A stretch of DNA of 64,000 nucleotides from Dehalococcoidia bacterium (lineage in GTDB: Bacteria > Chloroflexota > Dehalococcoidia > GIF9 > UBA5629): the NCBI GenBank assembly GCA_034436215.1, contig DAOTVU010000029.1, forward strand, positions 25,007-89,006. Reading direction: 5' to 3'. Position numbers and translations under genes: made by a program. How positions within the stretch are numbered: position 1 is the stretch's first letter; each line of letters starts with the position of its first letter. Of this stretch, positions 1 to 45,913 are shown one piece after another. The notes beneath the pieces are model-generated. The model was not told the origin of the DNA. It saw only the letters and a list, made by a program, of their open reading frames with translations, and made no database searches.

Positions 1-950
1 GTGCTGCAACGCTGTTGATACAGAACGGCGCCGTGGCGGGATTGCGTTTTTCAAAAGCTGTGAGCTACGGTAACGCGTTGGATGTAAATGAATGCGAATT
101 ATTACATTATTTTGCGTATGATGATAATACCTCTATCGTTGCTGCGTATTTTGAAGGAACTAAAAACGGGAAAAGCTTCTTCGATGCGTTAAAGACAGTG
201 GCTGATCGTAAACCCGTCATTGTGATAAAAGGCGGCAAGGGAAATGCTGGTTCAAGGGCGGCATCATCGCATACTGCTGCTATTGCAGGAGAACAAGATA
301 TATGGAAAATAGCTTTTAAACAATCAGGGGCAATTGAGGTTGATGACATAGATGAAATGCTGAACCTGCTGATGCTTTTTTATGAACTACCTCCTGTTTA
401 TTGTAATAGGGCCGCTATAATGGGTGGTGGAGGTGGTAAGGCGGTTATTGCTGCTGATCTAGCTGAAGCCGCGGGAATTATTTTACCTCCATTACCGTTT
501 GATATTAAGAATAAATTAAAAGCTATCGTACCAGGATTATGGGACTGGCTCAGCAATCCACTTGATACATCAATTTGGGGGGATGAAGGAATCAAACTTG
601 CTGAAGTACCACGGTTGTTTCTGGAAAGCCCCGATTATGATTTTTTAATAATTCAATCGTCTGAAGATAATCCGATGGCTGATGACATATGGGCATATAT
701 AATGAAAATGAATACAACCATGATATTGAACAATTTTGATAGAAGGGGAAAGCCAATAATTGCTATTATGCCAAGAGTAAAATCTTATGAAAATCCGATG
801 GATAAATTCCGATGGAAGATTATTGAGGAAGAAAAAGCGAAATTGATCAATGCAGGTGTCCCTGTATTCGATTCTATATCAGAGGCTGTTAAAGCACTCA
901 GCAGATATATCAATTACTGGAGAAGACATCAGACAAACATCCATGCATAA
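1..950 (+). CDS. ADP-forming acyl-CoA synthetase alpha-type / CoA-binding protein, C-terminal ~315 aa (5' end lies off the window)
   Basis: The frame is open from base 3 to TAA at 948-950. It carries the phosphohistidine-loop-like GSRAASSHTAAIAG and the glycine loop IMGGGGGKAV. It is collinear with the full-length paralogs at 41792-43237 and 50366-51820. Confidence 0.8.
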   Translation, partial: AATLLIQNGAVAGLRFSKAVSYGNALDVNECELLHYFAYDDNTSIVAAYFEGTKNGKSFFDALKTVADRKPVIVIKGGKGNAGSRAASSHTAAIAGEQDIWKIAFKQSGAIEVDDIDEMLNLLMLFYELPPVYCNRAAIMGGGGGKAVIAADLAEAAGIILPPLPFDIKNKLKAIVPGLWDWLSNPLDTSIWGDEGIKLAEVPRLFLESPDYDFLIIQSSEDNPMADDIWAYIMKMNTTMILNNFDRRGKPIIAIMPRVKSYENPMDKFRWKIIEEEKAKLINAGVPVFDSISEAVKALSRYINYWRRHQTNIHA

Positions 951-3025: not shown

Positions 3026-3817
3026 TTATAGCCAGCGTTTCCGGCGCTTATAATGTTTAATGTCCTTGTAGCTCTTTTTAGCCCCGGTTGCAGATATACC
3101 CATATAGAACTCTTTAACGTCTTCACGCCCTTTTAAATAATCTGCTGACCCATCAAGTACAATCCGTCCGTTTTCCATAACATAGCCGTAATGGGCTGTA
3201 TTTAATGCAACTCTTACATTTTGCTCTACCAGTAAAATCGACGTCTTTCGGTCTTCGTTGAACTTTTTAATTATATCGTAGATCTGTTCAACAACAAGCG
3301 GAGCCAGTCCAAGCGAAGGTTCATCTAACAGCATCAGTAAGGGCGCAGACATCATGGCTCGCCCAATTACTAGCATTTGCTGTTCACCACCCGATAAATA
3401 TCCTGCGATGCTATGTTTCAAGTTTTCAAGTCGGGGAAAGTATTCATAAACCATTTTAATATCTTTTTTTACATCTTTGGATCCAGTACGGCTGAATGCA
3501 CCAACCATTAAATTTTCTTCTACATTCAAATGGCCGAAAACCCTCCTGCCTTCGAGCGCCTGCACGATACCAAGCTTACCGATTTCTACTGAAGACTTTT
3601 TATCGATTCTAATATCATTCCACTCAATACTACCCTCAGTAATTTCTCCTTCTTCAATCCGTAATAAGCCGGAGATTGCTTTTAAAGTCGTAGTCTTGCC
3701 GGCACCATTGGCACCAAGCAAGGCTACGACTTTTCCATCGTCCACAGAAATCGAAATTCCGTGAAGTACTTTTACAACATTGAGATAAATTACCTCAATG
3801 TTATTAAGTTTTAACAT
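3026..3817 (-). CDS. branched-chain-amino-acid-type ABC transporter ATP-binding protein (LivF-like)
   Basis: Walker [10 protein letters not shown], signature LSGGEQQML and Walker [15 protein letters not shown]. It has a basic C-terminal tail, [10 protein letters not shown]. Confidence 0.85.
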
Positions 3818-3836
3818 TTTACTGAGCTATTCGAAA

Positions 3837-5105
3837 TTATTTTCCGAACCAATCGAATTTATCATATGGGATAAGGGGTGCATCAACCCAGCCGGTTAGA
3901 GATCGCATCTCTCCATTTTTAATCTGGAAAATCTTTACAGATTTAGAACCGCGTTTATCGACTGGGTTGGAAAAGTCAACTGGGCCGTGTAAACCTTCAA
4001 CACTATACCCTTTTACATTAAGAAAACCTTTGGTTTCAACCGCTTGCCATGAACTTGCGTCACCTTTAATCAACGATTCTAGGCCAGCATTTTTAATAGC
4101 CTGTTTGGTAATTTCAGCGGCAATTAAGCTGGAAGCCCAGCCGATAAGATAGTCATTATTACCGGAATACTCGGGATGTCTTGCTTTGCAATATTCCATC
4201 ATTTTAGGCATGCCCGGCACGCTATCTCCCCAGTTAACCGTCGGGTAAACTCCATAAACGTTTTCGCAAACCTCTTTGCCGGCAAGGTCAATGAGTGCTT
4301 TGGTAAAGCTTGCATGAGCACATGCTACCAGAGTATCCGGAATTATCTTTAATTCGGCCGCATTTCTTAATATAATTGCCGTCGGTGCAGGAGTGCTTGA
4401 AATAAAAAGCGCATCCGGGTTTTTTGACTTAATCCTCGTCAATGCATCGATTTCTGAAATTGTAGTCGCTGCATGTTCTTCAGCTGCTATTATTTCAATG
4501 CCCAATTCGTTAGCGATTGCTCTGGCAGCATCCCTGACACCATATCCGGTTGAATTATTAAGTAGCTCAAGAGCCATTTTAGGTTTCCCCGAGCCTTTCC
4601 AGATATTCTGCATATAGTACCGGGCAAAGGCTGCCCAATCATCGCCATAATCGGGTAATTGGGCGTAGATATGTTTGGGTGGATTTGTTAACGATGGTGA
4701 ACTGAAGCAGACCATACCCGGGAATCCGGATGTATTAGCTATATCTTTGGATGCGTTCATGTCCTTTGAAGAGACAACAATAAAGAAAGCACAACCGCCA
4801 TCCCTCAACCTCTTGGCTATGGTAGTGGCTTTAGCTGGATCATATCCAGTATCATACCAGATTGCTTCGAGTTTGATTCCATCCACTCCTCCCAATTCAT
4901 CATTTATATATTTTATAGCATCGAGCTGACCTTGGCCGATTGGGGCGCCCTTTTCTGCAGCTGCCCCTGTAAAAGGAATACTAAAACCGATCTTTAAAGA
5001 CTTGGTTGCAACCGGTGCCTGGGTACTGCATCCGCTAAAGATAGTAAATATGAAGGCGGTTAACACCATAGTTATAATTGTTGACATTACACTTCGCCTT
5101 GTCAT
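3837..5105 (-). CDS. ABC transporter substrate-binding lipoprotein (type I periplasmic-binding fold, LivK family)
   Basis: Signal peptide with lipobox FSGC. LivK-like N-terminal pattern LKIGFSIPFTGAAAEKG...INDELGGVDG. It sits inside the liv permease/ATPase operon. Confidence 0.85.
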   Translation of the reverse strand: MTRRSVMSTIITMVLTAFIFTIFSGCSTQAPVATKSLKIGFSIPFTGAAAEKGAPIGQGQLDAIKYINDELGGVDGIKLEAIWYDTGYDPAKATTIAKRLRDGGCAFFIVVSSKDMNASKDIANTSGFPGMVCFSSPSLTNPPKHIYAQLPDYGDDWAAFARYYMQNIWKGSGKPKMALELLNNSTGYGVRDAARAIANELGIEIIAAEEHAATTISEIDALTRIKSKNPDALFISSTPAPTAIILRNAAELKIIPDTLVACAHASFTKALIDLAGKEVCENVYGVYPTVNWGDSVPGMPKMMEYCKARHPEYSGNNDYLIGWASSLIAAEITKQAIKNAGLESLIKGDASSWQAVETKGFLNVKGYSVEGLHGPVDFSNPVDKRGSKSVKIFQIKNGEMRSLTGWVDAPLIPYDKFDWFGK

Positions 5106-5178
5106 TTACTCCCCCTTTATTTTTTATTTAAAGTGTAAATGGATAGCATTATAACAAATTATGTAGCCATATTTAATT

Positions 5179-6231
5179 CTAATAGGAAAACGGCCATAAG
5201 CGATAGGATGCTTTAAATAGGTTCCATCTGTGAGCTAAACCACGCGGCTCGAAAACCAGAAATATGATCATCATCAACCCGAAAATCATAGAACTCAAAC
5301 CTGTGGCAAAGCCTGTGGGCAGACTGGACAAAGTACCTTCAACCGTTGGAGCAAGCAGTATAACAAACTGCTCCAGCAATCTGATGAATAAAGAGCCAAA
5401 TATAGGCCCTATGGATGTACCCAAACCACCGATTATCAGTATACCGATATATAAAATCGATTGTCCGAAAGTGAAATCCTCAGGCGTGATGCTCCCCCTC
5501 CACTGGGCGAACAGCGAACCAGAGATGCCTGCAAAAAAACATCCTAAAAAGAATGCCAGAAGCTTGTAGGAAAATACATTGATACCCATTACCTCTGCCG
5601 CAAGGTCGTTATCTCGTACAGCAATAAACGCTCTCCCGATCTTGCTTCGAGCCAGGTTTGTGGAGAAAAAAACAGTAAGTGCAGTAATAGATGTAACAAG
5701 ATAGTATTGCATTGTTGAACTGTTAAATACTGTATTGCCAAATGAGGCAGGAGCAACAGCAAGCCCCATAGACCCGTGTGTAACATCGGTCCAGTGATTG
5801 AGGATCCAGATTATTATGAATTGTGCTGCTATAGTTGTTATAGCTAGGTAAAACCCTTTGACACGCAGTGATGGCATTCCAAATAGCAATCCGATTATTC
5901 CAGCAGCGATCCCGGATGCAACCAGCGCTATAAAAAAATTGATCTGAAAATTATTTGTTAATATAGCAGTTGTATAAGAGCCAACCGCTATAAATCCCGC
6001 ATGACCGATAGATAGTTGTCCGCAATATCCTACCATTATATTTAAACCTATTATTGCTATTATTGTTATGCCAATTAATACAATGATATCAACCATAAAT
6101 CCGGACAGGAAAAATGGAATAGATATTAGTACGCATAGGAAAAGGATAAAAATGCACCATTGAGTCCTGGTTCGGATGATGGCTGTGTCGGTATCATAAG
6201 AAAAATTTCGTATCCCGCAGGGTAGATTCAT
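5179..6231 (-). CDS. ABC transporter permease (LivM-like)
   Basis: Polytopic hydrophobic protein with the LivM-type motif GQLSIGHAGF. It is adjacent to a LivH-like gene. Confidence 0.85.
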   Translation of the reverse strand: MNLPCGIRNFSYDTDTAIIRTRTQWCIFILFLCVLISIPFFLSGFMVDIIVLIGITIIAIIGLNIMVGYCGQLSIGHAGFIAVGSYTTAILTNNFQINFFIALVASGIAAGIIGLLFGMPSLRVKGFYLAITTIAAQFIIIWILNHWTDVTHGSMGLAVAPASFGNTVFNSSTMQYYLVTSITALTVFFSTNLARSKIGRAFIAVRDNDLAAEVMGINVFSYKLLAFFLGCFFAGISGSLFAQWRGSITPEDFTFGQSILYIGILIIGGLGTSIGPIFGSLFIRLLEQFVILLAPTVEGTLSSLPTGFATGLSSMIFGLMMIIFLVFEPRGLAHRWNLFKASYRLWPFSY

Positions 6232-6236
6232 CCTTA

Positions 6237-7121
6237 TTAAATCCTCTCTATCCTTTCTTCTCCAAATAAACCATACGGCTTAAATAGTATTACCAGGATA
6301 ATGATGATAAAGGGTATCAGATCTTTTATACCGGGCCCGATAACTTGTGTTAAATATCCAGCACCGATGTTTTCACATAGGCCGATTATAGGGCCAGCAA
6401 TAACACACCCAATAAAAGAATCCATTCCGCCCAATATCACGACAGAAAATGATTTAAATCCTGTTTCAATCAGTGCATTGGTTATTCCTCCGATGCATGA
6501 TATTAATATCCCGCTAATAGCAGCTACAATACAGGCGAAAATCCAAGACATGGAAAAAATCCGATTAATAGGTACCGCACATGCCTGAACCGCTAGTTGA
6601 TCATCCGCTGTTGCTCTCATTGCAATGCCCATTTTGTGAAATTTGAAGAACACTGATAACAATAAAAATAGAAGAAGTGAAATGGCTGTCGCCCATAAAT
6701 ATTCCTGTGAAACAACAGCTGATCCGATATTGACTGAACCTTGGGGGAAAATGGGCGGAAGTTTAGCTACGCTTACAGGCCATATTACAGTCACAAGCCC
6801 TTCTAAGAAATACGCCAGCCCTAATGTCACTGCAATAAGTGAGAGTATAGGTTGACCTATCATGGGTCTTAATATGAGCCTTTCGATCATCCAGCCGAGA
6901 AATATGGCAAATAATATGGTGCATATCAAACCCAGCCAGACAGGGAGCTTAGCCTGAACAAGCATCCCATAGGTAAACCATGAGGATATTAAAACGAGTT
7001 GACCTAGTGCAAGGTTAGCAACCCTTGTTGATTTCCAGATTAGAGCAAAACCGAGAGCAATCAGAGCATAAATCATCCCAACTGCCAGCCCGGTGATTGT
7101 ATATTGGATTAACTGCAGCAT
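6237..7121 (-). CDS. ABC transporter permease (LivH-like)
   Basis: Polytopic hydrophobic 294-aa protein of LivH length with a LivH-like N-terminus (ANLALGQL). It lies 1 nt downstream of the ligase gene. Confidence 0.85.
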   Translation of the reverse strand: MLQLIQYTITGLAVGMIYALIALGFALIWKSTRVANLALGQLVLISSWFTYGMLVQAKLPVWLGLICTILFAIFLGWMIERLILRPMIGQPILSLIAVTLGLAYFLEGLVTVIWPVSVAKLPPIFPQGSVNIGSAVVSQEYLWATAISLLLFLLLSVFFKFHKMGIAMRATADDQLAVQACAVPINRIFSMSWIFACIVAAISGILISCIGGITNALIETGFKSFSVVILGGMDSFIGCVIAGPIIGLCENIGAGYLTQVIGPGIKDLIPFIIIILVILFKPYGLFGEERIERI

Positions 7122-7122
7122 T

Positions 7123-9015
7123 TCAAATATCCCATATTTTTATTTGTGTAGAAACTACACTCTTCCTCCCATCTCTATATGTTATAGATACATCGGCATC
7201 AAGAGAATTTTTATCAGTGTAGATGGCATCGATAACCGACTTGTATCTTAATTCCATAAACTCACGGCGTAGTTTCCTGGTACGTGTGAGTTCGGCTTCA
7301 TCAGGATCGAATTCTTTATGTAACAGTACATATCTTTTTACGCGAGATGCCTCAGGTAAATAATTATTAACCCTCATGATATCTTCTTTAATCAGGTCGG
7401 CAACCTCTTTTTTCTGCGACAGGTCAACAAAAGTAGTATAAGCCAATGATTTTCTTTCAGCCCATTTGCCCACCATAGCAAAATCGATATTGATTATAGC
7501 AGCAACAAATGATTTGTCCTTGCCTCCAATAACCATTGCATCTTTTATGTACGGGCTGAACCTCAATCTGCCTTCTATATATTGTGGTGCATATTTTGTT
7601 CCTGTAATTAAGATCCCCATATGTTCCAGTCTATCAAGAAAAATCAAATGCCCATTTTCGTTAATATTTACGGCATCGCCAGTATAACACCAATTTGACC
7701 TTTTAACCTTTGCAGTCTTTTCGGGCTCATTTAGATACTCTTTGAATAGACAATCACTTCGGACGATTAGCTCGCCCTCATCGGTTAGGCGGACTTCAAC
7801 GCCAACTGCCGGACGACCAACACTCTGGAAGTCAATTTCACCTTTATTATGAGACGAGATGAATCCTGCTTCTGTGCTTGCATATGTCTGACGAAGTTCT
7901 ATACCAATTGCATGTATGAGCCTGAATGTATCCAAACTTAATACGGAACTCCCTGTTACTGCAAATCTAACTTTAGACAGACCAAGCCTGTCTTTTAATG
8001 GTTTAAACAGCAATAAATTTGCTATGTCGTAAAGGATACCCCAGAAAATTCCCGGCCGCATATTCTGAAATTTTAGATCGGCATACTTATAACCTACTGG
8101 CATAAAGAGGTTATAAATAAATCTTTTCAGCGGGTGTGCATCGCTTATTTTAACCTGAATATCACTTACCAGGCCTTCCCATTGTCTGGGCCCGTATATA
8201 ACGAAATTGGGGCCTACTTCGCGCGTATCTTCAGCTATGGTTTCTGGTTCTTCGGCAAAATTCAACCTCGCTCCCGTCAAAATATGCGGAATTGTAGCAA
8301 AATAACTATCACCCACCCATGCTGCAGGGAAATTGGATATCAAATCATCAGTATTTGTTAATGGATAGATACGAATAAAGCTATTTGCTGTAGTTATCAG
8401 GGCACGATGTGTTAGTACGGCTCCTTTTGGTAGACCTGTAGTGCCGGATGTGTAATAAATAAATGCTGGATCATCTGGTTTAATTAGACTGATATTTGTT
8501 TCAAAAAGTCCTGGATTCTCTTTTTCATAGTTTACGCCCATATCGACTACTTTATCGAAATGTGCCAGCAACGGATTGTGATAATTTTGTAAACCTTTGG
8601 GATCCCAGTAGATAATCTTCTTTAAAGTCGGTAGTTCAGAACTGACTTCTAGAAATTTATCTACCTGCTCTTGATCGTTGGCAAAAGCAAAAGTGGCACT
8701 TGAATGATTATAAATATACTTCAACTCTGAAGGAATTGAATCGACGAAAGCACCAGTAGGAATAGCACCGGCCGCTTGAATTGCAAATTCTGCCCAGAAC
8801 CACTCCGGCTCATTATCGCCGATAATGCATACAACATCACCTTTATTCAGTCCTAAATTAATTAATCCCAGAGAAAGATACTTTATCTTATTAAAGTAGT
8901 CTTTCCATGTATATTTATACCATATACCGCGTCTCTTGATGCACATCGCAGTTAAATTACCCCATTTAAGGTAATTTTCTAGAATTAATTGTGGAATCGT
9001 ATATATGTTCGTCAT
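7123..9015 (-). CDS. AMP-forming acyl-CoA synthetase (long-chain-fatty-acid--CoA ligase-like, 630 aa)
   Basis: AMP-binding signature YYTSGTTGLPKGAVLTH and downstream YTGD motif. ATG start at 9013-9015. Confidence 0.85.
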   Translation of the reverse strand: MTNIYTIPQLILENYLKWGNLTAMCIKRRGIWYKYTWKDYFNKIKYLSLGLINLGLNKGDVVCIIGDNEPEWFWAEFAIQAAGAIPTGAFVDSIPSELKYIYNHSSATFAFANDQEQVDKFLEVSSELPTLKKIIYWDPKGLQNYHNPLLAHFDKVVDMGVNYEKENPGLFETNISLIKPDDPAFIYYTSGTTGLPKGAVLTHRALITTANSFIRIYPLTNTDDLISNFPAAWVGDSYFATIPHILTGARLNFAEEPETIAEDTREVGPNFVIYGPRQWEGLVSDIQVKISDAHPLKRFIYNLFMPVGYKYADLKFQNMRPGIFWGILYDIANLLLFKPLKDRLGLSKVRFAVTGSSVLSLDTFRLIHAIGIELRQTYASTEAGFISSHNKGEIDFQSVGRPAVGVEVRLTDEGELIVRSDCLFKEYLNEPEKTAKVKRSNWCYTGDAVNINENGHLIFLDRLEHMGILITGTKYAPQYIEGRLRFSPYIKDAMVIGGKDKSFVAAIINIDFAMVGKWAERKSLAYTTFVDLSQKKEVADLIKEDIMRVNNYLPEASRVKRYVLLHKEFDPDEAELTRTRKLRREFMELRYKSVIDAIYTDKNSLDADVSITYRDGRKSVVSTQIKIWDI

Positions 9016-9060
9016 GTGTTTTTACATGAGATGGTCGATCTGAGAGTTTAAACCGCCCAT

Positions 9061-10275
9061 TTAAGACAGTTTAAACTGCTCAGCAATCTTTCTAAAGCCG
9101 AAGATAGAACGTTCTATGGTACTGCGGTCAACACAATATGATATTCGGAAATATCCTGGAGTGCCGAATCCTCTGCCGGGTACCGTCAGCACATTATGCT
9201 TCTGTAGAGCATGAACAAACTCTACATCATTCTCGATAGGCGTCTTCGGAAACATATAGAATGCACCCTGCGGTTTTACGATCTGATATCCCATTTTAGT
9301 TAAGCTATTATACAAAAAATCTCTCTTTTCTTGATACTCCGGGATGGATACGGTTATATGCTGAAGATGACGAACGATATGTTGCATCAGTGCGGGTGCA
9401 TTTACAAAACCGAGAATCCGATTGCAGAAAATCAGACCGCTAACAAGCTCATTTTTATTTTCAATTTCTGGGTGGACTGCGATATAGCCAATGCGTTCTC
9501 CTGGTAATGCCAGATCCTTAGAATGCGAAGTAGCTATAATAGCTCTGGGGTATAACTTTAGGATTGGTACGTATTCTAAATTATCATATATTAGGCTACT
9601 ATACGCCTCATCACTTATTAAATAAATGTCTGAATTATATTTCTCCTCTTTTTTTATTAGTAATTCACTGATTTCTTCCAATAATTGTTTTGAATAAACT
9701 ACTCCAGTCGGGTTATTAGGGGAATTAATTATCACCGCTTTTGTATGTTTATTAATAAATGAATCCAATTGATTGAGATCCGGTAAAAAATTTTCATCGC
9801 ATCTTACAATAGATGGCCTGCCGCCATGGTTATCAATATAGTTGTCATATTCCATAAAATAGGGTGCAAAAAGTATAACTTCATCGCCAGGATTCAAAAT
9901 AGTCTTCAATATAACATTAATAGCTCCAGCAGCACCGACCGTCATTATGATATCATCAGCCCTGCAGTGTATACCATTTTCCAGTGATACCTGCTTGGCC
10001 ACCGCAGACCGCGTCTCTTCATATCCGGCATTTTCCATATAGCGATGCATACCAGGTAGAGGATTTGCTGCCAGCTCTCTTAAAATCTGCTTGAATTCTT
10101 CAGGTGGTTCGGTAATCGGATTTCCCAATGAGAGGTCGAAGATATTGTCTGGTCCGAATTTTTTCTTAAGCATATTAGCTTCTTCGAACATTCGGCGTGT
10201 CCACGATCCCTCGGCCATCCTTCTCTTAACATTTTCAGATATAGACACTGCTACCAACCTCTCTTCCTCTTTCAA
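9061..10275 (-). CDS. class I/II PLP-dependent aminotransferase (aspartate/aromatic type)
   Basis: Motifs LSLGNP, NSPNNPTG and the PLP-lysine motif SHSKDLALPGERIGY. The start is uncertain: TTG 10275, GTG 10248 preceded by GAGGAAGAGAGG, or ATG 10218. The first two overlap the end of iorB. Confidence 0.85.
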   Translation of the reverse strand: MKEEERLVAVSISENVKRRMAEGSWTRRMFEEANMLKKKFGPDNIFDLSLGNPITEPPEEFKQILRELAANPLPGMHRYMENAGYEETRSAVAKQVSLENGIHCRADDIIMTVGAAGAINVILKTILNPGDEVILFAPYFMEYDNYIDNHGGRPSIVRCDENFLPDLNQLDSFINKHTKAVIINSPNNPTGVVYSKQLLEEISELLIKKEEKYNSDIYLISDEAYSSLIYDNLEYVPILKLYPRAIIATSHSKDLALPGERIGYIAVHPEIENKNELVSGLIFCNRILGFVNAPALMQHIVRHLQHITVSIPEYQEKRDFLYNSLTKMGYQIVKPQGAFYMFPKTPIENDVEFVHALQKHNVLTVPGRGFGTPGYFRISYCVDRSTIERSIFGFRKIAEQFKLS

Positions 10276-10855
10276 ATGCGCGGATGTTTATATCTATTAC
10301 TTTAGGTGGCACATGGCTAGAGATACAATTTTTCCATAGTTTCTCATCGTATTTATACGGCAAAACGATTGACAGAATTCCCAGCATAAATACATTTAAA
10401 ATACGCACATCCCCCAATTTTACAGCTTCTTGTATGCCATCTACCATAAATACCTTTCTGGTCAATCGAAAATAAGAATCCAGAATTGATTGGTCATCCG
10501 GATATTTTGCCATGCCAAGAGAGATCGAAAGGGGAGGCAAAGCATAATTATTTATAATTACAGTACCATTCGGACTGAGATAATTTACCCATCTGGCAGC
10601 TTCTAATTTTTCAAAGGCCATGATGATATCGGCTTCATGTTTACTAACTAATGGTGCATAGACGATGGGGCCAATACGCACGTGGCTTGTAACACTACCT
10701 CCTCTTTGTGCCATCCCCAGCGTATCTGACTTTTTAATATCGTATCCCAGCGCAAGTGCAACCTCGCTAACAATATCGCTGGCTAGAATAGTACCCTGCC
10801 CACCCACGCCTACAAACAAGATATCCTGTTTCCTGTTGATATTAACCTTATTCAT
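10235..10855 (-). CDS. iorB: indolepyruvate:ferredoxin oxidoreductase beta subunit
   Basis: N-terminal ILFVGVGGQGTILAS motif of the 2-oxoacid:Fd oxidoreductase gamma-type domain, at IorB length. Its start overlaps the iorA stop by 4 nt. Confidence 0.85.
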   Translation of the reverse strand: MNKVNINRKQDILFVGVGGQGTILASDIVSEVALALGYDIKKSDTLGMAQRGGSVTSHVRIGPIVYAPLVSKHEADIIMAFEKLEAARWVNYLSPNGTVIINNYALPPLSISLGMAKYPDDQSILDSYFRLTRKVFMVDGIQEAVKLGDVRILNVFMLGILSIVLPYKYDEKLWKNCISSHVPPKVIDINIRAFERGREVGSSVYI

Positions 10856-12678
10856 CTGTCTGTGACTCCTGTCAATGGAGCAATCGCTCGTCTGGGACAG
10901 ACCTGCTCACACACCGCGCATGCATCTCCCATGCAGGACAATTGATCGATAATAATCTCATCATCTTTTTTTTGAATAGCCGGGCATCCGATCATAAGAC
11001 AAACACCACATTTATTACATCTGGCGGTATCCACATACCTTTTATTTTTGCGTTCTTTATTGATAACAGCGCACTTACCTTTTATAACAATCACGGACAA
11101 TTCGTTATTATCTAGAGAAGATTTTACAGCAGATCTTATAGATTTAATATCAAATGCATTTACAACCTTAATATCATCAACTCCTATTCCCTTTACGAGA
11201 TTTTCTATACGTACTGCTTTAGTTGGCTTTCCCTGTGCTGTAACTCCAGAGCCCGGGTGATCCTGATGTCCTGTCATAGCAGTTGTACCGTTATCCAGTA
11301 TGATGACTGTGATCTTTGAGTCGTTATAAACAGCATCAACTATACCTGTTATACCTGAATGCAGGAAAGTAGAATCGCCAATGACAGCGACTATTTTGCT
11401 TGTAGTACCGGCCTTCTCCAATCCTATAGCCTGTCCGATACTTGCACCCATACAGGCAGTTGTATCCATTGCTCTAAGCGGTGGATAAGCAGCCAGAGTA
11501 TAACAGCCGATATCTCCCGTAATTATGAGCTTGGATTCAACTTTTGATCTACCGTTCGAGTCTAATATTTTAGCTCTTTGGCCTAATGTACTCAGTACAA
11601 AAAATACACCTGCATGAGGACATCCCGGGCATAGCAAAGGAGGCCTGCCCGGAAGATCCTTAATAATCTGAACATCATCGATTTTACTAATTTCTGTTTC
11701 AATGCCAGCCTTAAACGCTGCAACATTGAGGATACTTTTATTGAGTTCGCCGGTTCGTGGGAGGTACTGTTTACCTTCCACCTTTAATCCCAGTATTTTT
11801 ACGTTTTCTTCAAGAAATGGATCCAGTTCTTCAACTACAAATAATCTCTCGACCCTGCTGGCAAATTCAGTTAATAATTTGGGAGGCAAAGGGAATACCA
11901 TGCCCAATTTTAAAAATGAAGCATTTTTAAATGTTTCTCTGGCATACTGATAACTTACGCCGCTGGTAATAATTCCAAGCCTTTTATCTCTATATATCAC
12001 CTGGTTTGCCGGCGTTGTCTCTGCCAGTTTTGATAAATCAGTAATACGATTATGCATATGAGGTACCCTGATACGTGCATTACTGGGTAACATTACATAC
12101 TTACCTATATCATGGAAAAACCTTTTTTTATTTATGTATCTGGCAGGATCAACGTCCATTTCAACAACCGATTTTGAATGGGCTATTCGTGTGGTTATTC
12201 TGAAAAGAACTGGTGTATCATATTTTTCACTGATTTCGAATGCAATAAAGATAAAGTTGTAAGCGTCCTGGCTGTCAGAGGGCTCCAGCATAGGTACTCT
12301 TGCAAGTCTGGCAAAGTGTCGGTTGTCTTGTTCACCCTGTGAGCTGTGTATACCCGGATCATCAGCTGATATAACCACGAGTCCGCCATTAATGCCGGTT
12401 GTCGCTGCAGCTAAAAACGCGTCTGCTGCCACATTAAGTCCAACATGCTTCATTGATACAATAGATCTAACACCAGCATAGGAAGCACCCAGACCGACTT
12501 CCATGGCAACTTTTTCATTGGTGGACCATTCAGCATATATATCTTTGAAAGTAGCCAGCGTCTCTAATATTTCTGTGCTGGGTGTACCGGGATAGGCGCT
12601 GGCAACGCCGACACCCGCATGGTAGGCAGCAATCGCTATAGATTCGTTGCCCGAGAGTAACCTTCGGATCTTTTCCAT
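10852..12678 (-). CDS. iorA: indolepyruvate:ferredoxin oxidoreductase alpha subunit
   Basis: N-terminus MEKIRRLLSGNESIAIAAYHAGV is typical for IorA. It has a TPP-binding region (GDSTFLHSG) and two ferredoxin-type cluster motifs, CNKCGVCLMIGCP and C...CAVCEQVCP. The ORF-track TTG start at 12753 adds 25 atypical residues, so I use ATG 12678. Confidence 0.88.
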   Translation of the reverse strand: MEKIRRLLSGNESIAIAAYHAGVGVASAYPGTPSTEILETLATFKDIYAEWSTNEKVAMEVGLGASYAGVRSIVSMKHVGLNVAADAFLAAATTGINGGLVVISADDPGIHSSQGEQDNRHFARLARVPMLEPSDSQDAYNFIFIAFEISEKYDTPVLFRITTRIAHSKSVVEMDVDPARYINKKRFFHDIGKYVMLPSNARIRVPHMHNRITDLSKLAETTPANQVIYRDKRLGIITSGVSYQYARETFKNASFLKLGMVFPLPPKLLTEFASRVERLFVVEELDPFLEENVKILGLKVEGKQYLPRTGELNKSILNVAAFKAGIETEISKIDDVQIIKDLPGRPPLLCPGCPHAGVFFVLSTLGQRAKILDSNGRSKVESKLIITGDIGCYTLAAYPPLRAMDTTACMGASIGQAIGLEKAGTTSKIVAVIGDSTFLHSGITGIVDAVYNDSKITVIILDNGTTAMTGHQDHPGSGVTAQGKPTKAVRIENLVKGIGVDDIKVVNAFDIKSIRSAVKSSLDNNELSVIVIKGKCAVINKERKNKRYVDTARCNKCGVCLMIGCPAIQKKDDEIIIDQLSCMGDACAVCEQVCPRRAIAPLTGVTDR

Positions 12679-12754
12679 TATTTTTTGCTGTCTATTTTGA
12701 TATGAAAATTGAATAGGGTTTCTATTATAATTGTCGGTCAGTAATAAATTCAAA

Positions 12755-13054
12755 TTAAAAAGGCGAAGGTTTCTTTCGCAGTTGATCTATTAAACTATCC
12801 AGTGCAATTGCGGGCAAAGTTAGGCTCTGCAGTCCGCCAGTAGATAGGTGAATTGCAAGCTCTGCAGCTTTTTCATTGCTCGGTGCATCAACAATATGCA
12901 CAAAATCGTACGGCCCCAGTAAGGCATACTGCGCCAAAATTTTGACGCCCATATATTCAACTTCTTTATTTAGTTCTTTGAGCCTTTCGGGATATTCTTC
13001 TATTGCCCTTCTGCCGTCACCAGTCAATGTTGAAAGCATAAGATAAATAGCCAT
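12755..13054 (-). CDS. GYD domain-containing protein
   Basis: 99 aa from ATG 13054, preceded by GGAGGGG. It has the LGPYDFV (GxYD) motif and the size typical of the GYD family. It is the first gene of the ior operon. Confidence 0.7.
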   Translation of the reverse strand: MAIYLMLSTLTGDGRRAIEEYPERLKELNKEVEYMGVKILAQYALLGPYDFVHIVDAPSNEKAAELAIHLSTGGLQSLTLPAIALDSLIDQLRKKPSPF

Positions 13055-13249
13055 AATCCCCTCCACAAAATATTCGATTTTGGATGACGATATTTTACCA
13101 TCAAAACTCGGGTGATGTAACTTATTGTATACGGCTACTTGACATTATTATATAAAAGTAATGTATTATATTATACTGATAAAAGTATTTATATAAATAT
13201 CATTATTTAACCTTTTTAAAATGCACGCAAACAAGTATATCTACCGAAA

Positions 13250-13296
13250 GTGACTCCGGATGAGCTGCTGTATCCCCACAGTAGCGCTGGAGTCAC
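13250..13296 (+). promoter_or_regulatory. two-helix stem-loop in the 5' leader of the substrate-binding-protein gene
   Basis: Outer helix gtgactcc (13250-57) pairs with ggagtcac (13289-96). Inner helix gctgctgt (13264-71) pairs with acagtagc (13278-85), including one G-U pair. The element ends 68 nt upstream of ATG 13364. Confidence 0.4.
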
Positions 13297-13363
13297 GTAC
13301 CTGCTGAATAAATTAATACCTTTTACGTATTTATCAATTAATAATATTTGTGGAGGTTTATCT

Positions 13364-14614
13364 ATGAAAAGAGCGGTTTTATTATCTACTATGGCAATAA
13401 TACTTATCGTATTGCCTATTATAGCCAGCTGTGCTCCCGCCGGAAAGCCTGCTGCGCCTATGAGTAAAGAAGCCAAAGTAATTAAGGTCGGATGCACGCT
13501 CCCATTTGATAACAGCTTAGGGATAGATACTAAAAAAGCACTGGAAATGATTGTACCGGCTTTCAATAATGCAGGTGGACTTAATGTTGAGGGTCAAAAA
13601 TACTCTATAGAAATGATTATTTATGATGATAAATATACTGCTGACGGTGGAAGAGCTGCTGTTGAGAGACTTGTTAATGAAGATAAGGTTAAATACATAG
13701 TCTGTCAGGTAGGTTCAGCCCCCATATTGGCTGGACTGGTTATTACCGAACCGGCAAAGGTTTTGGTTATGTGTGGCGGGGCGGCAGCTCAGATTATCGA
13801 TCCGAAGCTTAAATATGTTTATGGAACTGCAACCTGGAGAACGAATTTAGCACCACTGTTCCCTTTACTTAAAAAAGCTTTTCCCGAAGCCAAAACAATG
13901 GTAAATTTATCACCGGATGATGATACTGGTAGAAATCTTGCCAGGGATCACACCAGAATTGCTGAGGCCCTTGGAATTAAAGTTCTTGATTCGATTTACT
14001 ATCCGCGCAGTACACAGGATTTCGCTCCATTTGCCACTAAGATAATGTCTCTCAAACCAGATATTATGGATTATCCTGGGGCACTGGCGGGTACGCAATT
14101 TGGCTTGCAGTTCAAGGCGCTTTATGAGGCCGGTTTCCGAGGAGCACATATCAGCCCTATGCCTCCCAATCTTGTAGAAGTGCTTGCAGTTACGCCCAAG
14201 GAATCACTCGAGGGCTTAATTTCGGTTTTGCCGTCAACTGAAATCCCAAATCCCACTGCAATGGCTCGTGAGTATAAAGAAGCCTGGATTGCAAAGTATG
14301 GTCAGTGGTCTGTAGCAAGTTTGACGTGGATACCTGCATTCTATTGCTTCGTAGAAGCTGTTAAGAAAGCTAATAGTCTTGATACGGATATAATAACCAA
14401 TTATCTTTCGACCAACGGCCTGGAGTGGGAGAGCCCAAATGGAAAGGCTATGCTGGTTAAACGTCCTGATTATAAAAACAACAGATTCTGTGATACATGT
14501 GCATCCCTTGATTTTGGTATATTCAAAAACGGGAAATACGAATATCTGGGAACTGTCTCCGCTTCTGAGGCTCTCAAGGCCAATCAGGATGCATTTGGTG
14601 GACAGTGGAAATAG
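13364..14614 (+). CDS. ABC transporter substrate-binding lipoprotein (LivK family)
   Basis: ATG 13364 is preceded by GGAGG. Signal peptide with lipobox IASC. Type I binding-protein pattern IKVGCTLPFDNSLG. The ORF-track start at 13250 is an extension into the leader. Confidence 0.85.
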   Translation: MKRAVLLSTMAIILIVLPIIASCAPAGKPAAPMSKEAKVIKVGCTLPFDNSLGIDTKKALEMIVPAFNNAGGLNVEGQKYSIEMIIYDDKYTADGGRAAVERLVNEDKVKYIVCQVGSAPILAGLVITEPAKVLVMCGGAAAQIIDPKLKYVYGTATWRTNLAPLFPLLKKAFPEAKTMVNLSPDDDTGRNLARDHTRIAEALGIKVLDSIYYPRSTQDFAPFATKIMSLKPDIMDYPGALAGTQFGLQFKALYEAGFRGAHISPMPPNLVEVLAVTPKESLEGLISVLPSTEIPNPTAMAREYKEAWIAKYGQWSVASLTWIPAFYCFVEAVKKANSLDTDIITNYLSTNGLEWESPNGKAMLVKRPDYKNNRFCDTCASLDFGIFKNGKYEYLGTVSASEALKANQDAFGGQWK

Positions 14615-14672
14615 GTAAATTTTCAATATTTAGCGTGTAAAATAACTGTTAAAAATTATGCAGTGTTTAGTT

Positions 14673-14703
14673 GTGTGGCTCCGATCATCATGGGGGGCCA
14701 CAC
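14673..14703 (+). promoter_or_regulatory. intercistronic hairpin between the binding-protein and permease genes
   Basis: gtgtggctcc (14673-82) pairs with ggggccacac (14694-703). That is 10 bp including one G-U, with an 11-nt loop and no clear U-tract. Confidence 0.4.
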
Positions 14704-14743
14704 TTAACTTCTCAGTTGGTAAATCGATCTGCTGAGGAAGCAA

Positions 14744-15637
14744 ATGACCGTAGGCTTATTTATTCAGTTATTAATAAATGGGCTTTCCATAGGGTCTATT
14801 TATATTCTGATGGTTCTGGGTCTAGATATAATCCTAAGGGGTACCAAGATACTGAATTTCGCTCATGGACAGCTGTATATGCTGGGAGCTTATGCGCTAT
14901 TTTTCCTCTTCCAACAGTTGCATATTGATTACGTACTCTCTCTGGTTTTAGCCGGATTGATTATATCGCTTATCGGGGCTGTAAGTTATCTGGGCGTTTT
15001 TCATGTTATCAGATCAAGATTTACCGTGAGTACAACATTTTCTTACAGGTTGCTACTCAGCGCTATGGCTTCGGTCGGTTTAATGATGATATTACAGCAG
15101 GGGACATTGCTCGGCTTTGGAACATTAGAGCGCGGTGTACAATCTCCATTCCCCCAGATTATAGCAATTTACGACATTAGATTTTCACTTCAAAGAGTAA
15201 TAGTGATTGCTTTAAGTGTAATCATATGCGTTGGACTATTTTTGTTAATGTACAAAACTCGATTGGGGAAGATATTAAGGGCGGTAAGTTATGATCCTGA
15301 AGCGGTCACATTGCAGGGGATAAATACATTTTGGATTTTCGTAATATGTTTTGCATTGGGGAGTGGCATGGCCGGTCTCGCAGGTGCGATTATTGCACCT
15401 TTATTTTCGGTCACTCCTACAATGGGACAGAATGTTATATTTTTATCTCTCTTGGTACTTCTTGTCGGCGGAATCGGTAGTTACAAGGGCACAATACTCG
15501 GTGGTTTGGTAATCGGACTCTTATTAAGCTTTGGCTTCCAATTTTTAGGCGGTGCCGCGGAGTTATTTGTATTTTTGATTGTTATAGCTATTCTAAGTAT
15601 AAGACCTGGAGGCATACTTGGCGAAGCTTCAGAATAG
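14744..15637 (+). CDS. ABC transporter permease (LivH-like)
   Basis: ATG 14744 is preceded by GAGGAAG. Motif LNFAHGQLYMLGAY. Polytopic membrane protein. Confidence 0.87.
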   Translation: MTVGLFIQLLINGLSIGSIYILMVLGLDIILRGTKILNFAHGQLYMLGAYALFFLFQQLHIDYVLSLVLAGLIISLIGAVSYLGVFHVIRSRFTVSTTFSYRLLLSAMASVGLMMILQQGTLLGFGTLERGVQSPFPQIIAIYDIRFSLQRVIVIALSVIICVGLFLLMYKTRLGKILRAVSYDPEAVTLQGINTFWIFVICFALGSGMAGLAGAIIAPLFSVTPTMGQNVIFLSLLVLLVGGIGSYKGTILGGLVIGLLLSFGFQFLGGAAELFVFLIVIAILSIRPGGILGEASE

Positions 15638-16643
15638 CCCGAAATCTGATCGAAACAGGATAATTGCAATTGCTGTTTTACTGATTGTGTTGGTAATACT
15701 GCCAATTCTAATAGAAAATGACTATGTAAAACATCTATTAATTATGGCCTGTATTAGCACTGTCCTTGGCATGACCTTCAGTCTTCTGTTTAGTACGGGT
15801 TTAATCACACTTGGTGCCGGCGCATTTTATGCTATCGGTGCATATGTATCTGCAATTCTGGCCATAAACTACGGGCTGTCTTTCTGGATTGCATTGCCTC
15901 TAACAATTATCGTTTCTTCCATCATAGCATTGATTCTGGGTGCTATTTTTGTTAAAAATGGTGGAATCGCCTTTGTGATAATTTCGTTATTATTTGCCAA
16001 TGTTGTTGTTATTGCAACCGGGCAGAGTGAATTCTTAGGGGGTTGGGGGGGGATAATTGGAATACCCAAACCCTCAGCCATAGGTCCGATAGAGTTTACA
16101 ACTAAAACGGCATTCTATTATCTTGCACTCACGTTGCTATCTATTATCATAATTATATACCTTGCGTTGTATACATCTCGTATCGGTAGGGCATGGCGGG
16201 CTATAAAGCTCAGTCCTAATTTGGCTGGCACCCTGGGGATTAATCTTTATAGATATCGTTTACTTGCATTTACTATTAGTTCTGCAACTGCAGCAACTAT
16301 GGGATCTTTTTATGCACATTATTTTCAGACCATTACCCCAAATGCTTTTAGTGGATGGCTATCTATATATATACAATTATATTCCGTATTAGGGGGCCTC
16401 GAGTATTATATAATGGGTCCAGCCATTGGAGCATTAATCATGACATTTATTCCCGAGTATTTACGTGTTATAAAGGAAATTGAGCCAATTGTTACCGGTG
16501 TGCTGTTACTTGTAATAATATTGTTTTTCCCGGGCGGCATTCTCGGTTCATTTAGGAATAGGGCTAAAAATGGAGACAGCTTTATCGGCAAGATTGGCAA
16601 AAGACTGAGTGTTTATAAAAGTTGGGTCTTTAAATCAAAATAG
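15618..16643 (+). CDS. ABC transporter permease (LivM-like)
   Basis: Polytopic protein with LivM-like ITLGAGAFYAIGAY. The only in-frame start is TTG 15618, which overlaps the end of livH by 20 nt. Confidence 0.82.
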   Translation: MAKLQNSPKSDRNRIIAIAVLLIVLVILPILIENDYVKHLLIMACISTVLGMTFSLLFSTGLITLGAGAFYAIGAYVSAILAINYGLSFWIALPLTIIVSSIIALILGAIFVKNGGIAFVIISLLFANVVVIATGQSEFLGGWGGIIGIPKPSAIGPIEFTTKTAFYYLALTLLSIIIIIYLALYTSRIGRAWRAIKLSPNLAGTLGINLYRYRLLAFTISSATAATMGSFYAHYFQTITPNAFSGWLSIYIQLYSVLGGLEYYIMGPAIGALIMTFIPEYLRVIKEIEPIVTGVLLLVIILFFPGGILGSFRNRAKNGDSFIGKIGKRLSVYKSWVFKSK

Positions 16644-16663
16644 TAATTCTGTTGGATGATTAA

Positions 16664-17428
16664 ATGGCACTACTGGAAGTTAAAAATATAACTCGTTCTT
16701 TTGGTGGACTGATAGCGCTTCGCAATCTCAGTTTTGATGTATACAATCTGGAGATAGTGGGTCTAATCGGTCCTAACGGTGCTGGAAAAAGTACTTTATT
16801 TAATATTATCAGCGGATTCTATCGGCCTGATCGAGGCAAAGTCATATTTAAAGGGGAACAGATAACCGGTTTGAGTGTAGATGAGGTCGCGCGGAAAGGT
16901 ATTGGCAGGATATTTCAGGAACCGACACTTTTCATGCAGGAAACAGTGTTTGAAAATGTTTTTACGGGATTTCACCGACATTTCGAACAATCTTACTTGA
17001 AAGCTTTTTTGCATACTAATTCTGCCAATCGTGAGGAAAAAGAAAAGAAAATAAAAGTTTTAGAAATTTTAGATTTTATGGGTCTATTAAACCTAAAAGA
17101 CGAGATTGCTGGCAATTTGCCTCATGGACACCAAAGAGCACTGGCTATTGCCATAGCTTTAGCTACGGGGCCGGAATTGCTACTTCTAGATGAACCGGTG
17201 ACAGGCATGAACCCGAGTGAAACAATGCAAATGGTGGATAAAATTAAACAGATACGTGATAGCGGCATTACAGTATTAATTGTCGAACATGATATGAAAG
17301 CGGTAATGAGTCTATGTGACAGGATTATCGTACTGAGCTTGGGCGTAAAAATATCTGAAGGCGTCCCCGATCAAATTAGACAAGATACTTTAGTTATCGA
17401 AGCATATCTCGGCAAGAGGATAGCATAA
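16664..17428 (+). CDS. ABC transporter ATP-binding protein (LivG-like)
   Basis: Walker A GPNGAGKST, Walker B LLLLDEPVTGMN and H-loop IVEHDM. Confidence 0.87.
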   Translation: MALLEVKNITRSFGGLIALRNLSFDVYNLEIVGLIGPNGAGKSTLFNIISGFYRPDRGKVIFKGEQITGLSVDEVARKGIGRIFQEPTLFMQETVFENVFTGFHRHFEQSYLKAFLHTNSANREEKEKKIKVLEILDFMGLLNLKDEIAGNLPHGHQRALAIAIALATGPELLLLDEPVTGMNPSETMQMVDKIKQIRDSGITVLIVEHDMKAVMSLCDRIIVLSLGVKISEGVPDQIRQDTLVIEAYLGKRIA

Positions 17429-17429
17429 A

Positions 17430-18137
17430 ATGCTTTTGCAGGTAGATAATATAACCGTTTACTATGGAAAGGCTGAAGTAATAAAAGAATTAAGCATTCA
17501 TGTCGATGATAAAGAGATAATTACTATTATTGGTGCTAATGGCGCCGGTAAAACAACAACTTTGAGGGCCATCTCAGGATTAAAAAATATAGATAGTGGT
17601 GCAATATGGTTTAATGGTATTAAAATTAACGGATTGCCTGCCTATCAAATTGTTAGAATGGGTATATCCCATGTTCCTGAAGGAAGAAAAATACTTGCTC
17701 CGCTAACCGTGATTGAAAATCTGGAGATAGGTGCTTATCTCTGGAAAAATAAAAGGGATCTTGCACGGGGTTATGAAGAAATTTTTCAAAGATTTCCTGT
17801 TTTGAAAGAAAGAAGAAATCAAATTGCCGGCAGTCTCAGTGGGGGAGAACAACAGATGCTAGCTATTGCCCGTGCGCTTCTAAATCAACCCCGATTGATA
17901 ATGATGGATGAACCAAGCATGGGTCTCTCGCCTATCATGGTCAATGAGGTTGTAAATATCATCAGAGATATTAATAAAAAGGGGTTAAGCGTAATTCTTG
18001 TAGAACAAAATGCTAGAATGGCACTCGCATTAGCCCATAGAGCCTATGTTCTGGAGACCGGCCGCTGCGTACTAGAAGGTAAAGCGAATTTGCTCGATAA
18101 TGATGAACGGATAAAAACAGCTTATTTAGGTGGCTAA
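17430..18137 (+). CDS. ABC transporter ATP-binding protein (LivF-like)
   Basis: Walker [11 protein letters not shown], signature LSGGEQQML and Walker B LIMMDEPSMGLSP. It starts 1 nt after the livG stop. Confidence 0.87.
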   Translation: MLLQVDNITVYYGKAEVIKELSIHVDDKEIITIIGANGAGKTTTLRAISGLKNIDSGAIWFNGIKINGLPAYQIVRMGISHVPEGRKILAPLTVIENLEIGAYLWKNKRDLARGYEEIFQRFPVLKERRNQIAGSLSGGEQQMLAIARALLNQPRLIMMDEPSMGLSPIMVNEVVNIIRDINKKGLSVILVEQNARMALALAHRAYVLETGRCVLEGKANLLDNDERIKTAYLGG

Positions 18138-18210
18138 ATAATTATTTGTATTTCATAATTCAACCAAGCCCTGGCTGTCGAAAAACAATTTAGATTATGG
18201 GGGATATCAG

Positions 18211-31210: not shown

Positions 31211-31299
<89 letters not shown>

Positions 31300-31313
31300 A
31301 GAAAATTGTTAAA

Positions 31314-31399
31314 TGGCGGAGAGGGTGGGATTCGAACCCACGAGGCTCTCGCCCACCGCTTTTCGAGAGCGGCGCCATAAACCACTCGGCCACCTCTCC
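31314..31399 (-). tRNA. tRNA-Ser (anticodon CGA)
   Basis: Hand-folded cloverleaf. Acceptor GGAGAGG, anticodon stem CCGCT/AGCGG and loop CTCGAAA. Long variable arm and encoded CCA. Its 3' 29 nt are identical to those of the neighbouring tRNA-Ser. Confidence 0.88.
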
Positions 31400-34863: not shown

Positions 34864-34935
<72 letters not shown>

Positions 34936-34980
34936 TATCCTATTTTTAAATATTAGTTGCTGTTCATAGTCTATTATAAT

Positions 34981-35865: not shown

Positions 35866-35867
35866 AA

Positions 35868-38421: not shown

Positions 38422-38436
38422 TGTTGAATTTGTAAA

Positions 38437-45840: not shown

Positions 45841-45913
45841 TCGGGGTGAGTGGATTTGAACCACCGACCTCATGGTCCCAAACCATGCGCGCTAACCGCT
45901 GCGCTACACCCCG
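45841..45913 (-). tRNA. tRNA-Pro (anticodon TGG)
   Basis: Hand-folded. Acceptor CGGGGTG/CACCCCG, anticodon stem CATGG/CCATG, loop TTTGGGA and T-loop TTCAAAT. CCA is not encoded. Confidence 0.88.

Follow-up and report, generated by a model that had tools for sequence, protein, structure and literature searches.

Reductive carboxylation of phenylacetate and indoleacetate was shown physiologically in rumen anaerobes decades ago, and aryl-acid reductive carboxylation has been shown genetically in one methanogen. In the route followed by these organisms an arylacetate is converted to its CoA ester by an AMP-forming ligase, the ester is carboxylated to the arylpyruvate by indolepyruvate:ferredoxin oxidoreductase (IOR) with reduced ferredoxin and CO2, and a transaminase forms the amino acid; Methanococcus maripaludis makes aromatic amino acids from aryl acids through IOR (Porat et al. 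2004, as cited in PMC4162585). Here we describe a gene cluster at positions 3026–13054, on the minus strand, of a 64 000 nt stretch of DNA from a Dehalococcoidia bacterium (GCA_034436215.1, contig DAOTVU010000029.1; the whole stretch is referred to as the window). In the cluster, genes for a Liv-type ATP-binding cassette (ABC) importer and an AMP-forming acyl-CoA ligase adjoin the genes for both IOR subunits and an aminotransferase. We consider it moderately probable that the locus serves the salvage of aryl acids, most likely leading from phenylacetate to phenylalanine.

Two further described systems use related enzymes. Peptide fermentation in Pyrococcus and Thermococcus relies on the same IOR and aminotransferase families, and genes resembling the alpha subunit of the ADP-forming acyl-CoA synthetase (ACD) are also present in the window; however, that pathway runs in the reverse direction, can do without an AMP-forming ligase and an acid importer, and is not under amino-acid-starvation control. 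Phenylacetyl-CoA is also at the centre of the clusters of Desulfococcus multivorans and Desulfobacula toluolica, where, as here, uptake system, CoA ligase and IorAB are co-localized or co-induced, but uptake is by a tripartite ATP-independent periplasmic (TRAP) transporter, downstream degradation genes are present, and there is neither a transaminase in the operon nor a Phe attenuator (PMC5109826). Compared with the M. maripaludis route, the present locus is bacterial and combines IOR and the transaminase with a dedicated Liv-type ABC importer and a ligase of the ACSL type, and relatives of the window place the uptake and activation half under a predicted Phe-codon leader attenuator.

Gene content of the minus-strand cluster

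ORF, Pfam and NCBIfam analyses recovered all nine minus-strand genes of the original prediction in the order given there. The first gene of the operon (12755–13054) encodes a 99 aa GYD-domain protein (PF08734, E=1.6e-21), with a GGAGGGG ribosome-binding site preceding the ATG at 13054; its homologues in relatives also have 99 aa, and comparison with PDB sequences gave no solved homologue. The second, iorA (10852–12678), encodes the IOR alpha subunit (TIGR03336, 707.3 bits against a cut-off of 650.9), with a TTG at 12753 as the other possible start. IorA consists of POR_N and TPP_enzyme_C domains and has two CxxCxxCxxxCP motifs at the C-terminus of its translation; PDB sequences yielded no informative relative and, by sequence, no solved IOR structure. 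Directly downstream and overlapping it by 4 nt, iorB (10235–10855) encodes the beta subunit, of the POR gamma type (PF01558, E=7e-34), which scored 228.5 bits on NF005322, slightly under the cut-off of 237. The class I/II pyridoxal-phosphate aminotransferase (9061–10248; PF00155; NF005305, 555.8 bits against 376) has 395 aa, the length also annotated for its homologues, when started from the GTG at 10248. Its top match in the PDB was 3ele, followed by aspartate and aromatic aminotransferases.

The remaining genes encode a 630 aa AMP-forming acyl-CoA ligase resembling ACSL and FadD11 (7123–9015; hereafter Lig630), a LivH-like permease (6237–7121; PF02653, LivH and UrtB profiles), a LivM-like permease (5179–6231; PF02653, LivM profile), a substrate-binding lipoprotein of the Peripla_BP_6/LIVBP fold (3837–5105; PF13458) and a LivF-like ABC ATPase (3026–3817; PF00005), which reached 213 bits on NF008626, under the cut-off of that profile. 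Start codons were picked from homologue lengths and local sequence. The resulting intergenic gaps were, in order, 76, −4, −14, 45, 1, 5, 73 and 19 nt, the third becoming −41 if the aminotransferase starts at the alternative TTG at 10275, in agreement with the range of −41 to 76 nt given earlier. The C-terminus of the LivF-like ATPase (3026–3100, minus strand) forms a basic tail that is longer than the E. coli LivF profile; as the LivF homologues uniformly have 263 aa, this tail is probably conserved.

Lig630 matched PF00501 (183 bits) and AMP-binding_C_3 (PF23562, 43 bits), and its translation contains the P-loop motif YTSGTTGLPKG. It scored under every NCBIfam equivalog cut-off (best NF038343, 235 bits against 950), and the NCBIfam profiles accordingly gave no orthology to a named characterized ligase such as FadD11 or FadD.

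Liv-type importers require two ATPases. The second was found on the plus strand, where a LivG-like ABC ATPase is encoded at about 2182–2994 (PF00005 and PF12399 BCA_ABC_TP_C; LivG profile 236 bits) in an ORF that opens at TTG 2134, directly after tgt (850–2133), and converges on livF with the two stop codons 31 nt apart. The parts of a HAAT/Liv-type importer (TC 3.A.1.4), namely two BPD_transp_2 permeases, a Peripla_BP_6 protein and LivG-type and LivF-type ATPases, are all present, and the set is complete only if this livG is counted. The nine genes had been taken as one system; all nine are there, but this second transporter ATPase on the other strand had been missed.

The binding protein carries a lipobox, FSGC, in its translation, and its AlphaFold model has a predicted local distance difference test (pLDDT) score of 91. 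Foldseek matched the model alike to binders of valine, p-coumarate, phenylpyruvate and fatty acids, at 17–20 % identity, with the valine-bound 3lkb as the top structural match, and the top PDB sequence match was the fatty-acid binder 4n03 (E=3e-8). Across the sequence and fold comparisons, similarity to binders of valine, leucine, aromatic acids and fatty acids was weak to the same degree. The protein shares its fold and transporter family with CouP and the RPA0668-type binders of Rhodopseudomonas palustris (PDB 4f8j, 4evq and 4dqd), whose cargo is an aromatic carboxylate that is subsequently CoA-activated; identity to these is only 17–20 %, and unlike in R. palustris, the transporter operon here includes the ligase gene, which is an ACSL-type one. 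An assignment of ligand class from the PDB sequence search, the AlphaFold model and Foldseek was rejected, as amino-acid and acid binders were not separable.

Conservation in Dehalococcoidia and beyond

Homologues of the ligase at 71–80 % identity number in the hundreds, and those with named sources come from Dehalococcoidia or Chloroflexota metagenome-assembled genomes. One genome per GTDB species was scanned with a 12-sequence ligase alignment as query, which yielded 80 loci. Where the titles name a lineage it is always Dehalococcoidia or Chloroflexota, five of them reading 'uncultured Chloroflexia bacterium'. The loci were annotated by tblastn with the proteins of the window together with a PaaK-like ligase and a 4HBT thioesterase from relatives; 54 had enough upstream sequence to be assessed and 43 enough downstream sequence.

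The order ligase–LivH–LivM–substrate-binding protein (SBP)–LivF was unchanged in all 80 loci, with the Lig630 gene directly upstream of livH in each. Upstream of the ligase, IorAB was the immediate neighbour in 30 of the 54 assessable loci, and in 27 of these the aminotransferase was present too, which preserves the adjacent, single-strand arrangement of ligase, IOR and aminotransferase seen in the window. The synteny survey proposed with the original prediction thus supports the grouping; all related loci examined showed this gene order again, so the genes are not neighbours by chance. On the downstream side livG adjoins the module in 38 of the 43 loci, convergent in 35 and on the same strand in 3. 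In the window livG is apparently co-transcribed with tgt, and the split between opposite strands is kept in most Dehalococcoidales.

Two genes absent from the window recur in its relatives. A hotdog thioesterase of the PaaI type (TIGR02286 PaaI, 100 bits) lies between aminotransferase and ligase in 37/54 loci, and a PaaK-family ligase (PaaK profiles, E=1e-66) follows livF in 26/43. The fullest cluster can therefore be written as (GYD) IorA IorB aminotransferase PaaI / ligase LivH LivM SBP LivF PaaK / (LivG, convergent). The GYD gene is near the cluster in 35 of 54 loci with varying orientation, being mostly divergent, and co-directional and first in the clade of the window.

That clade comprises ten species representatives (L012–L021) and the metagenome contigs L001–L006. 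Its members have a co-directional GYD gene, no thioesterase, no PaaK and an aminotransferase–ligase gap of about 45–51 nt; loci that have the thioesterase show a spacer of about 300 nt ahead of the ligase, versus 45 nt in the window. The clade has lost the thioesterase, the promoter-leader described below and PaaK, and the two units have therefore fused into a single operon led by the GYD gene. Packaging in one operon, as originally proposed, consequently holds for this clade, whereas most relatives have two transcription units about 300 nt apart.

Beyond these loci, ligases only about 45 % identical to that of the window were found in Desulfobacterota and other Chloroflexota. They belong to modules of the form LivG–ligase–LivH–LivM–SBP–LivF, all on one strand with livG first, and in one such module the flanking genes encode MaoC, enoyl-CoA hydratase and SDR proteins. 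In Caldarchaeia, a 2026 paper likewise found acsL genes beside Liv transporters and left them unexplained (PMC12979851). These distant modules share the six components and the position of the ligase beside the permeases, but in those examined there was no IOR, aminotransferase, PaaK or Phe leader, and their cargo is probably a different acid. Ligase-embedded Liv modules thus also occur in distant lineages without IOR, which makes the combination of an ABC importer and its ACSL-type ligase a general acid-uptake and acid-activation module.

A Phe-codon leader upstream of the ligase in relatives

The ligase–importer unit is preceded by a leader in 60 of the 80 species representatives, counting both leader types (for example L007:5740–5930, L011:5850–6000 and L042:9845–9934). 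Locus L088, of a cultured Dehalogenimonas, has both the module and the leader. The leader spacer is conserved and consists, in order, of a promoter, a short ORF, hairpin 1, the sequence GGGAGG, a terminator hairpin and a T-run ahead of the ligase. The promoter is sigma-70-like (TTGACA/TATGGTAA, in the form TTGACAg-17-TATGGTAAgCT). The ORF of type-1 leaders is typically 25–45 codons long and ends in ...K-F-(V/I/T)-F-T, encoded as TTC-NNN-TTT, with the TTC and TTT codons invariant in 31 distinct leader sequences. In the sister group the leader ORF contains 6–8 Phe within about ten residues, such as NRFFFFFFFEFT or AFFFFGFFFS (n=12 leaders).

Hairpin 1 has 10 bp and starts one codon (ACC; single unpaired base) past the second Phe codon, and the terminator hairpin has the form TTACCTCCC...GGGAGGTAA, followed by the T-run. 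Taken together, hairpin 1 and the terminator were 94 % paired, compared to 32–53 % in slid controls. The helices showed compensatory changes at eight pairs, and the observed covariation score was reached by none of 500 shuffles. The 3′ arm of hairpin 1 together with GGGAGG can base-pair with the terminator's 5′ arm and loop, and the resulting antiterminator duplex had a mean of −17.6 kcal/mol, versus roughly −10 to −11 for shuffled partners; in 5 of the 31 leaders (L051, L061, L064, L090 and L091) the own partner outperformed every foreign one. With a covariance model the leader was located in 57 loci, in each case on the coding strand a short way upstream of the ligase. The geometry is that of a classical three-helix attenuator.

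The closest described counterparts are the enterobacterial pheA and pheST leaders (Rfam Phe_leader, RF01859), which likewise have a short Phe-codon ORF before region 1, alternative antiterminator and terminator structures and a U-run. The leaders described here differ in occurring in Dehalococcoidia, in preceding an importer–ligase operon, in having mostly two Phe codons and in scoring below the Rfam threshold: L011, from the sister group with 6–8 Phe, gave a partial match of 37.7 bits (E=5.6e-5), under the gathering score of 55, and L007 gave no match. By analogy with this mechanism, a ribosome stalled at the Phe codons would mask region 1 and free region 2 to form the antiterminator. The leader is thus predicted, from its sequence features, to sense phenylalanine, such that scarcity of charged tRNA-Phe would switch on production of the importer and ligases. 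The presence of a Phe-codon attenuator therefore marks the ligase–importer–PaaK unit as a candidate phenylalanine supply system.

The leader of the relatives is absent from the window. A search by motif produced a single match, at chance level and inside a gene, the covariance model reached at best 10.4 bits (E=1.4), and the model had no match elsewhere in the clade of the window or in the distant modules either. A scan of the window for riboswitches and T-boxes at Rfam gathering thresholds gave tRNAs only, and a permissive scan of 12600–13500 gave noise.

Proposed pathway and alternative explanations

The proposed pathway begins outside the cell, where the lipoprotein would capture an aromatic carboxylate, which LivH and LivM would then import, powered by LivF and the LivG encoded on the other strand. 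The ACSL-type ligase would trap it as a CoA thioester with conversion of ATP to AMP and pyrophosphate, IorAB would use reduced ferredoxin and CO2 to convert the arylacetyl-CoA to the arylpyruvate, and the aminotransferase would complete the amino acid. In most Dehalococcoidales these steps would be divided between an IorA–IorB–aminotransferase–PaaI-like thioesterase unit and a ligase–LivHM–SBP–LivF–PaaK-like ligase unit with its own promoter and ribosome-mediated attenuator. Flux direction would then depend on the starvation-controlled ligases, with the reversible IOR and aminotransferase placed in the separate unit with the thioesterase. In the clade of the window a FadD-type ligase is encoded next door, together with a second Liv importer in some members.

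AMP-forming ligases drive the reaction from acid to CoA ester, as is established for enzymes of the ANL type and in keeping with the aryl-acid route of M. maripaludis (cited in PMC4162585). The predicted co-induction of two such ligases and the importer under phenylalanine limitation would thus be sensible only with an acid precursor as the cargo. Because two AMP-forming CoA ligases would be induced, with IOR, the aminotransferase and the PaaI-like thioesterase as their commonest neighbours, we infer that the simplest cargo is phenylacetate, perhaps with other arylacetates. Likewise, the predicted phenylalanine-starvation control of the importer–ligase unit in relatives favours an anabolic reading, in which IOR would run in the carboxylating direction. 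The originally predicted sequence of import, AMP-forming activation, carboxylation by IOR and transamination gains from the orthologous clusters, which add PaaK, PaaI and the Phe leader (60/80); what does not stand is that the nine genes make up the whole system. The fuller proposal, that Dehalococcoidia possess a phenylacetate salvage induced by phenylalanine starvation, with IOR acting as a phenylpyruvate synthase fed by the importer and its embedded ACSL-type ligase, is put forward tentatively, as possible rather than probable.

Several observations weigh against salvage toward phenylalanine. Lig630 is of the long-chain ACSL/FadD11-like type rather than a known arylacetate ligase, and the nearest solved relatives of the binding protein mix amino-acid, aromatic-acid and fatty-acid binders, all weakly similar. 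Most type-1 leaders contain just two Phe codons, and, as leader, PaaK and thioesterase are all missing from the window, the regulatory argument is transferred from orthologues. The thioesterase of the relatives and the three ACD-alpha-like genes of the window would fit the opposite flux, at least some of the time, and the importer–ligase unit occurs without adjacent IOR in 24 of the 54 loci. Finally, L011, which has the full cluster, carries aroK/aroB, aroC and aroE about 3 kb away, meaning that salvage is not forced by auxotrophy in that genome.

Three other explanations were considered, all of them weakened because the link between ligase and permeases is invariant and because of the Phe leader. 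A fermentative role, in which aromatic or branched-chain amino acids enter through the Liv system and are oxidized to acyl-CoA by the aminotransferase and IOR, ADP-forming synthetases encoded elsewhere in the window make ATP and the AMP-forming ligase is an unrelated passenger, for example in fatty-acid scavenging, is in our view unlikely. The succession of aminotransferase, IOR and ACD is an established peptide-fermentation route (PMC5817080), three ACD-alpha-like genes lie within the window, some Liv-type binding proteins take amino acids, as with the valine-bound 3lkb, and the thioesterase follows the aminotransferase in relatives. A passenger ligase would nevertheless not be expected to remain with the permease genes in all 80 loci, nor the relatives' unit to gain a second CoA ligase; moreover, the predicted induction by phenylalanine starvation is the opposite of what a catabolic phenylalanine operon needs, and an AMP-forming ligase beside an ACD would create a futile cycle. 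Operation of the AMP-forming ligase in reverse for ATP synthesis, which has reportedly been proposed for Syntrophus, was rejected: nothing was found in its support, and phenylalanine-starvation control argues against it.

Still less probable is a catabolic funnel, in which phenylalanine, via the aminotransferase and IOR, and imported phenylacetate, via the ligase, converge on phenylacetyl-CoA for anaerobic degradation by genes located elsewhere, as in Desulfococcus and Desulfobacula. A PaaK and PaaI pair is typical of phenylacetate catabolons, and the same pairing is found in the relatives. Phenylacetate and phenylpyruvate each induce, in D. multivorans, an uptake system together with a CoA ligase and IorAB (PMC5109826). 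However, inspection of the 20-kb neighbourhoods revealed no genes for alpha-oxidation or of the phenylglyoxylate or benzoyl-CoA routes, a Phe-codon attenuator points to amino-acid supply rather than carbon catabolism, and the longest contigs, of about 1.3–2.5 Mb, suggest small genomes with scant room for ring degradation. The least probable of the three is that two unrelated modules lie side by side, a generic one for carboxylic- or fatty-acid uptake and activation and an IOR–aminotransferase one, which were fused in a single clade through genome compaction. This would account for the LivG–ligase–LivH–LivM–SBP–LivF modules without IOR in other lineages, one of them beside beta-oxidation-type genes, for the Dehalococcoidia loci without adjacent IOR, for the fatty-acid binder 4n03 as best sequence match of the binding protein and for acsL beside Liv transporters in archaea (PMC12979851). 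It sits poorly with the 30 of 54 species-level loci in which IOR is immediately upstream, with accessory genes that are specific to aromatic acids and with a Phe leader that links the importer–ligase unit to phenylalanine.

Second importer–ligase unit and other features of the window

Besides the minus-strand importer–ligase unit, which is present as predicted, a second importer and ligase, divergent from the GYD gene at 13364–19761 on the plus strand, had been missed. By Pfam, a second Liv-type importer is encoded at 13364–18137 (SBP2, in an ORF from 13250, LivH2, LivM2, LivG2 and LivF2) and is kept in the closest relatives L001–L005, L013 and L016. The last gene of the unit (18211–19761) encodes a 516 aa FadD-type AMP-forming ligase (Lig516; PF00501 and PF13193; NF004837, 431 bits against a cut-off of 476). 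Two importer-plus-ligase units thus flank GYD–IorAB–aminotransferase in the window. Lig516 occurs near the GYD–IOR unit almost only in the clade of the window, which lacks PaaK, with one other copy of the same family located downstream in L052; Lig516 may be a functional stand-in for PaaK.

A candidate sigma-70-like promoter for the minus-strand operon was located at 13170–13197 (minus strand; TTTATA-16-TATAAT, 10/12) as a consensus match only. Taken over the entire scan, the counts of promoters and terminators were not above those in shuffled sequence and cannot define transcription units. Six tRNA genes, the sole Rfam gathering matches in the window, were located at 31214–31399, 34864–34935, 45841–45913, 48861–48949 and 49671–49742.

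Genes of the ADP-forming acyl-CoA synthetase alpha type were found at the three places previously indicated, 15–950 (+), 41792–43237 (−) and 50366–51820 (+), with CoA_binding_2 and Succ_CoA_lig domains. None of the three ORFs has an ATP-grasp domain, and no beta partner was identified among the ORFs scanned. At 34957–41017 (+), genes for a four-domain 2-oxoacid:ferredoxin oxidoreductase (gamma-delta, alpha, beta) are followed by those for NuoE-like, NuoF-like and 2Fe-2S/4Fe-4S proteins; these could form a ferredoxin–NAD(H) link that bears on the supply of reduced ferredoxin. A cluster for the dicarboxylate branch of the tricarboxylic acid cycle is located at 51821–61718 (−), comprising succinyl-CoA synthetase alpha and beta, a two-part class I fumarase, malic enzyme, a four-subunit succinate dehydrogenase/fumarate reductase and a second flavoprotein resembling L-aspartate oxidase or FrdA. 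The window also encodes trigger factor, ClpP, LexA and an aspartyl-tRNA synthetase with a GAD domain, which mark its source as bacterial, together with redox enzymes of anaerobe type.

The aro genes of L011 (L011:15180–18901) lie between UbiA and RuvX. The same position in the closest relatives of the window (L001:18081–20524 and L004:19435–21824) is occupied by an NfeD/S49 peptidase gene, and no aro genes were found there.

Implications for Dehalococcoidia

Three features of the system appear to be new: the conserved packaging of an importer and embedded ligase with IOR and a transaminase across a major class of uncultured bacteria, regulation of the uptake genes by a Phe leader, and the fused single-operon form found in the window. 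In the literature searched, the coverage of which was incomplete, no description of the packaging, the Phe-leader control or the fused operon was found, nor of any bacterial locus uniting uptake, activation, IOR, transamination and regulation, in line with the original suggestion that a unit of transporter, ligase, IOR and transaminase had not been described. If the salvage reading is correct, the locus and its orthologues would constitute the first complete bacterial gene set for aryl-acid reductive carboxylation, covering uptake, activation, carboxylation, amination and regulation.

The literature searched also contained no report of a leader-peptide attenuator in this phylum, and to our knowledge only T-boxes have been discussed in this lineage so far. 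The Phe leader extends leader-peptide attenuation to the Dehalococcoidia lineage and provides a regulatory handle that is open to direct test.

Members of the Dehalococcoidia, most of them uncultured, abound in sediments, aquifers and digesters, habitats in which phenylacetate commonly arises by fermentation. A salvage system of the kind proposed would explain cross-feeding dependencies in these habitats and would aid the design of culture media. Metagenomic IOR genes are routinely taken as evidence of amino-acid fermentation, and the cluster described here is a warning that such genes can signify metabolism in the opposite direction.

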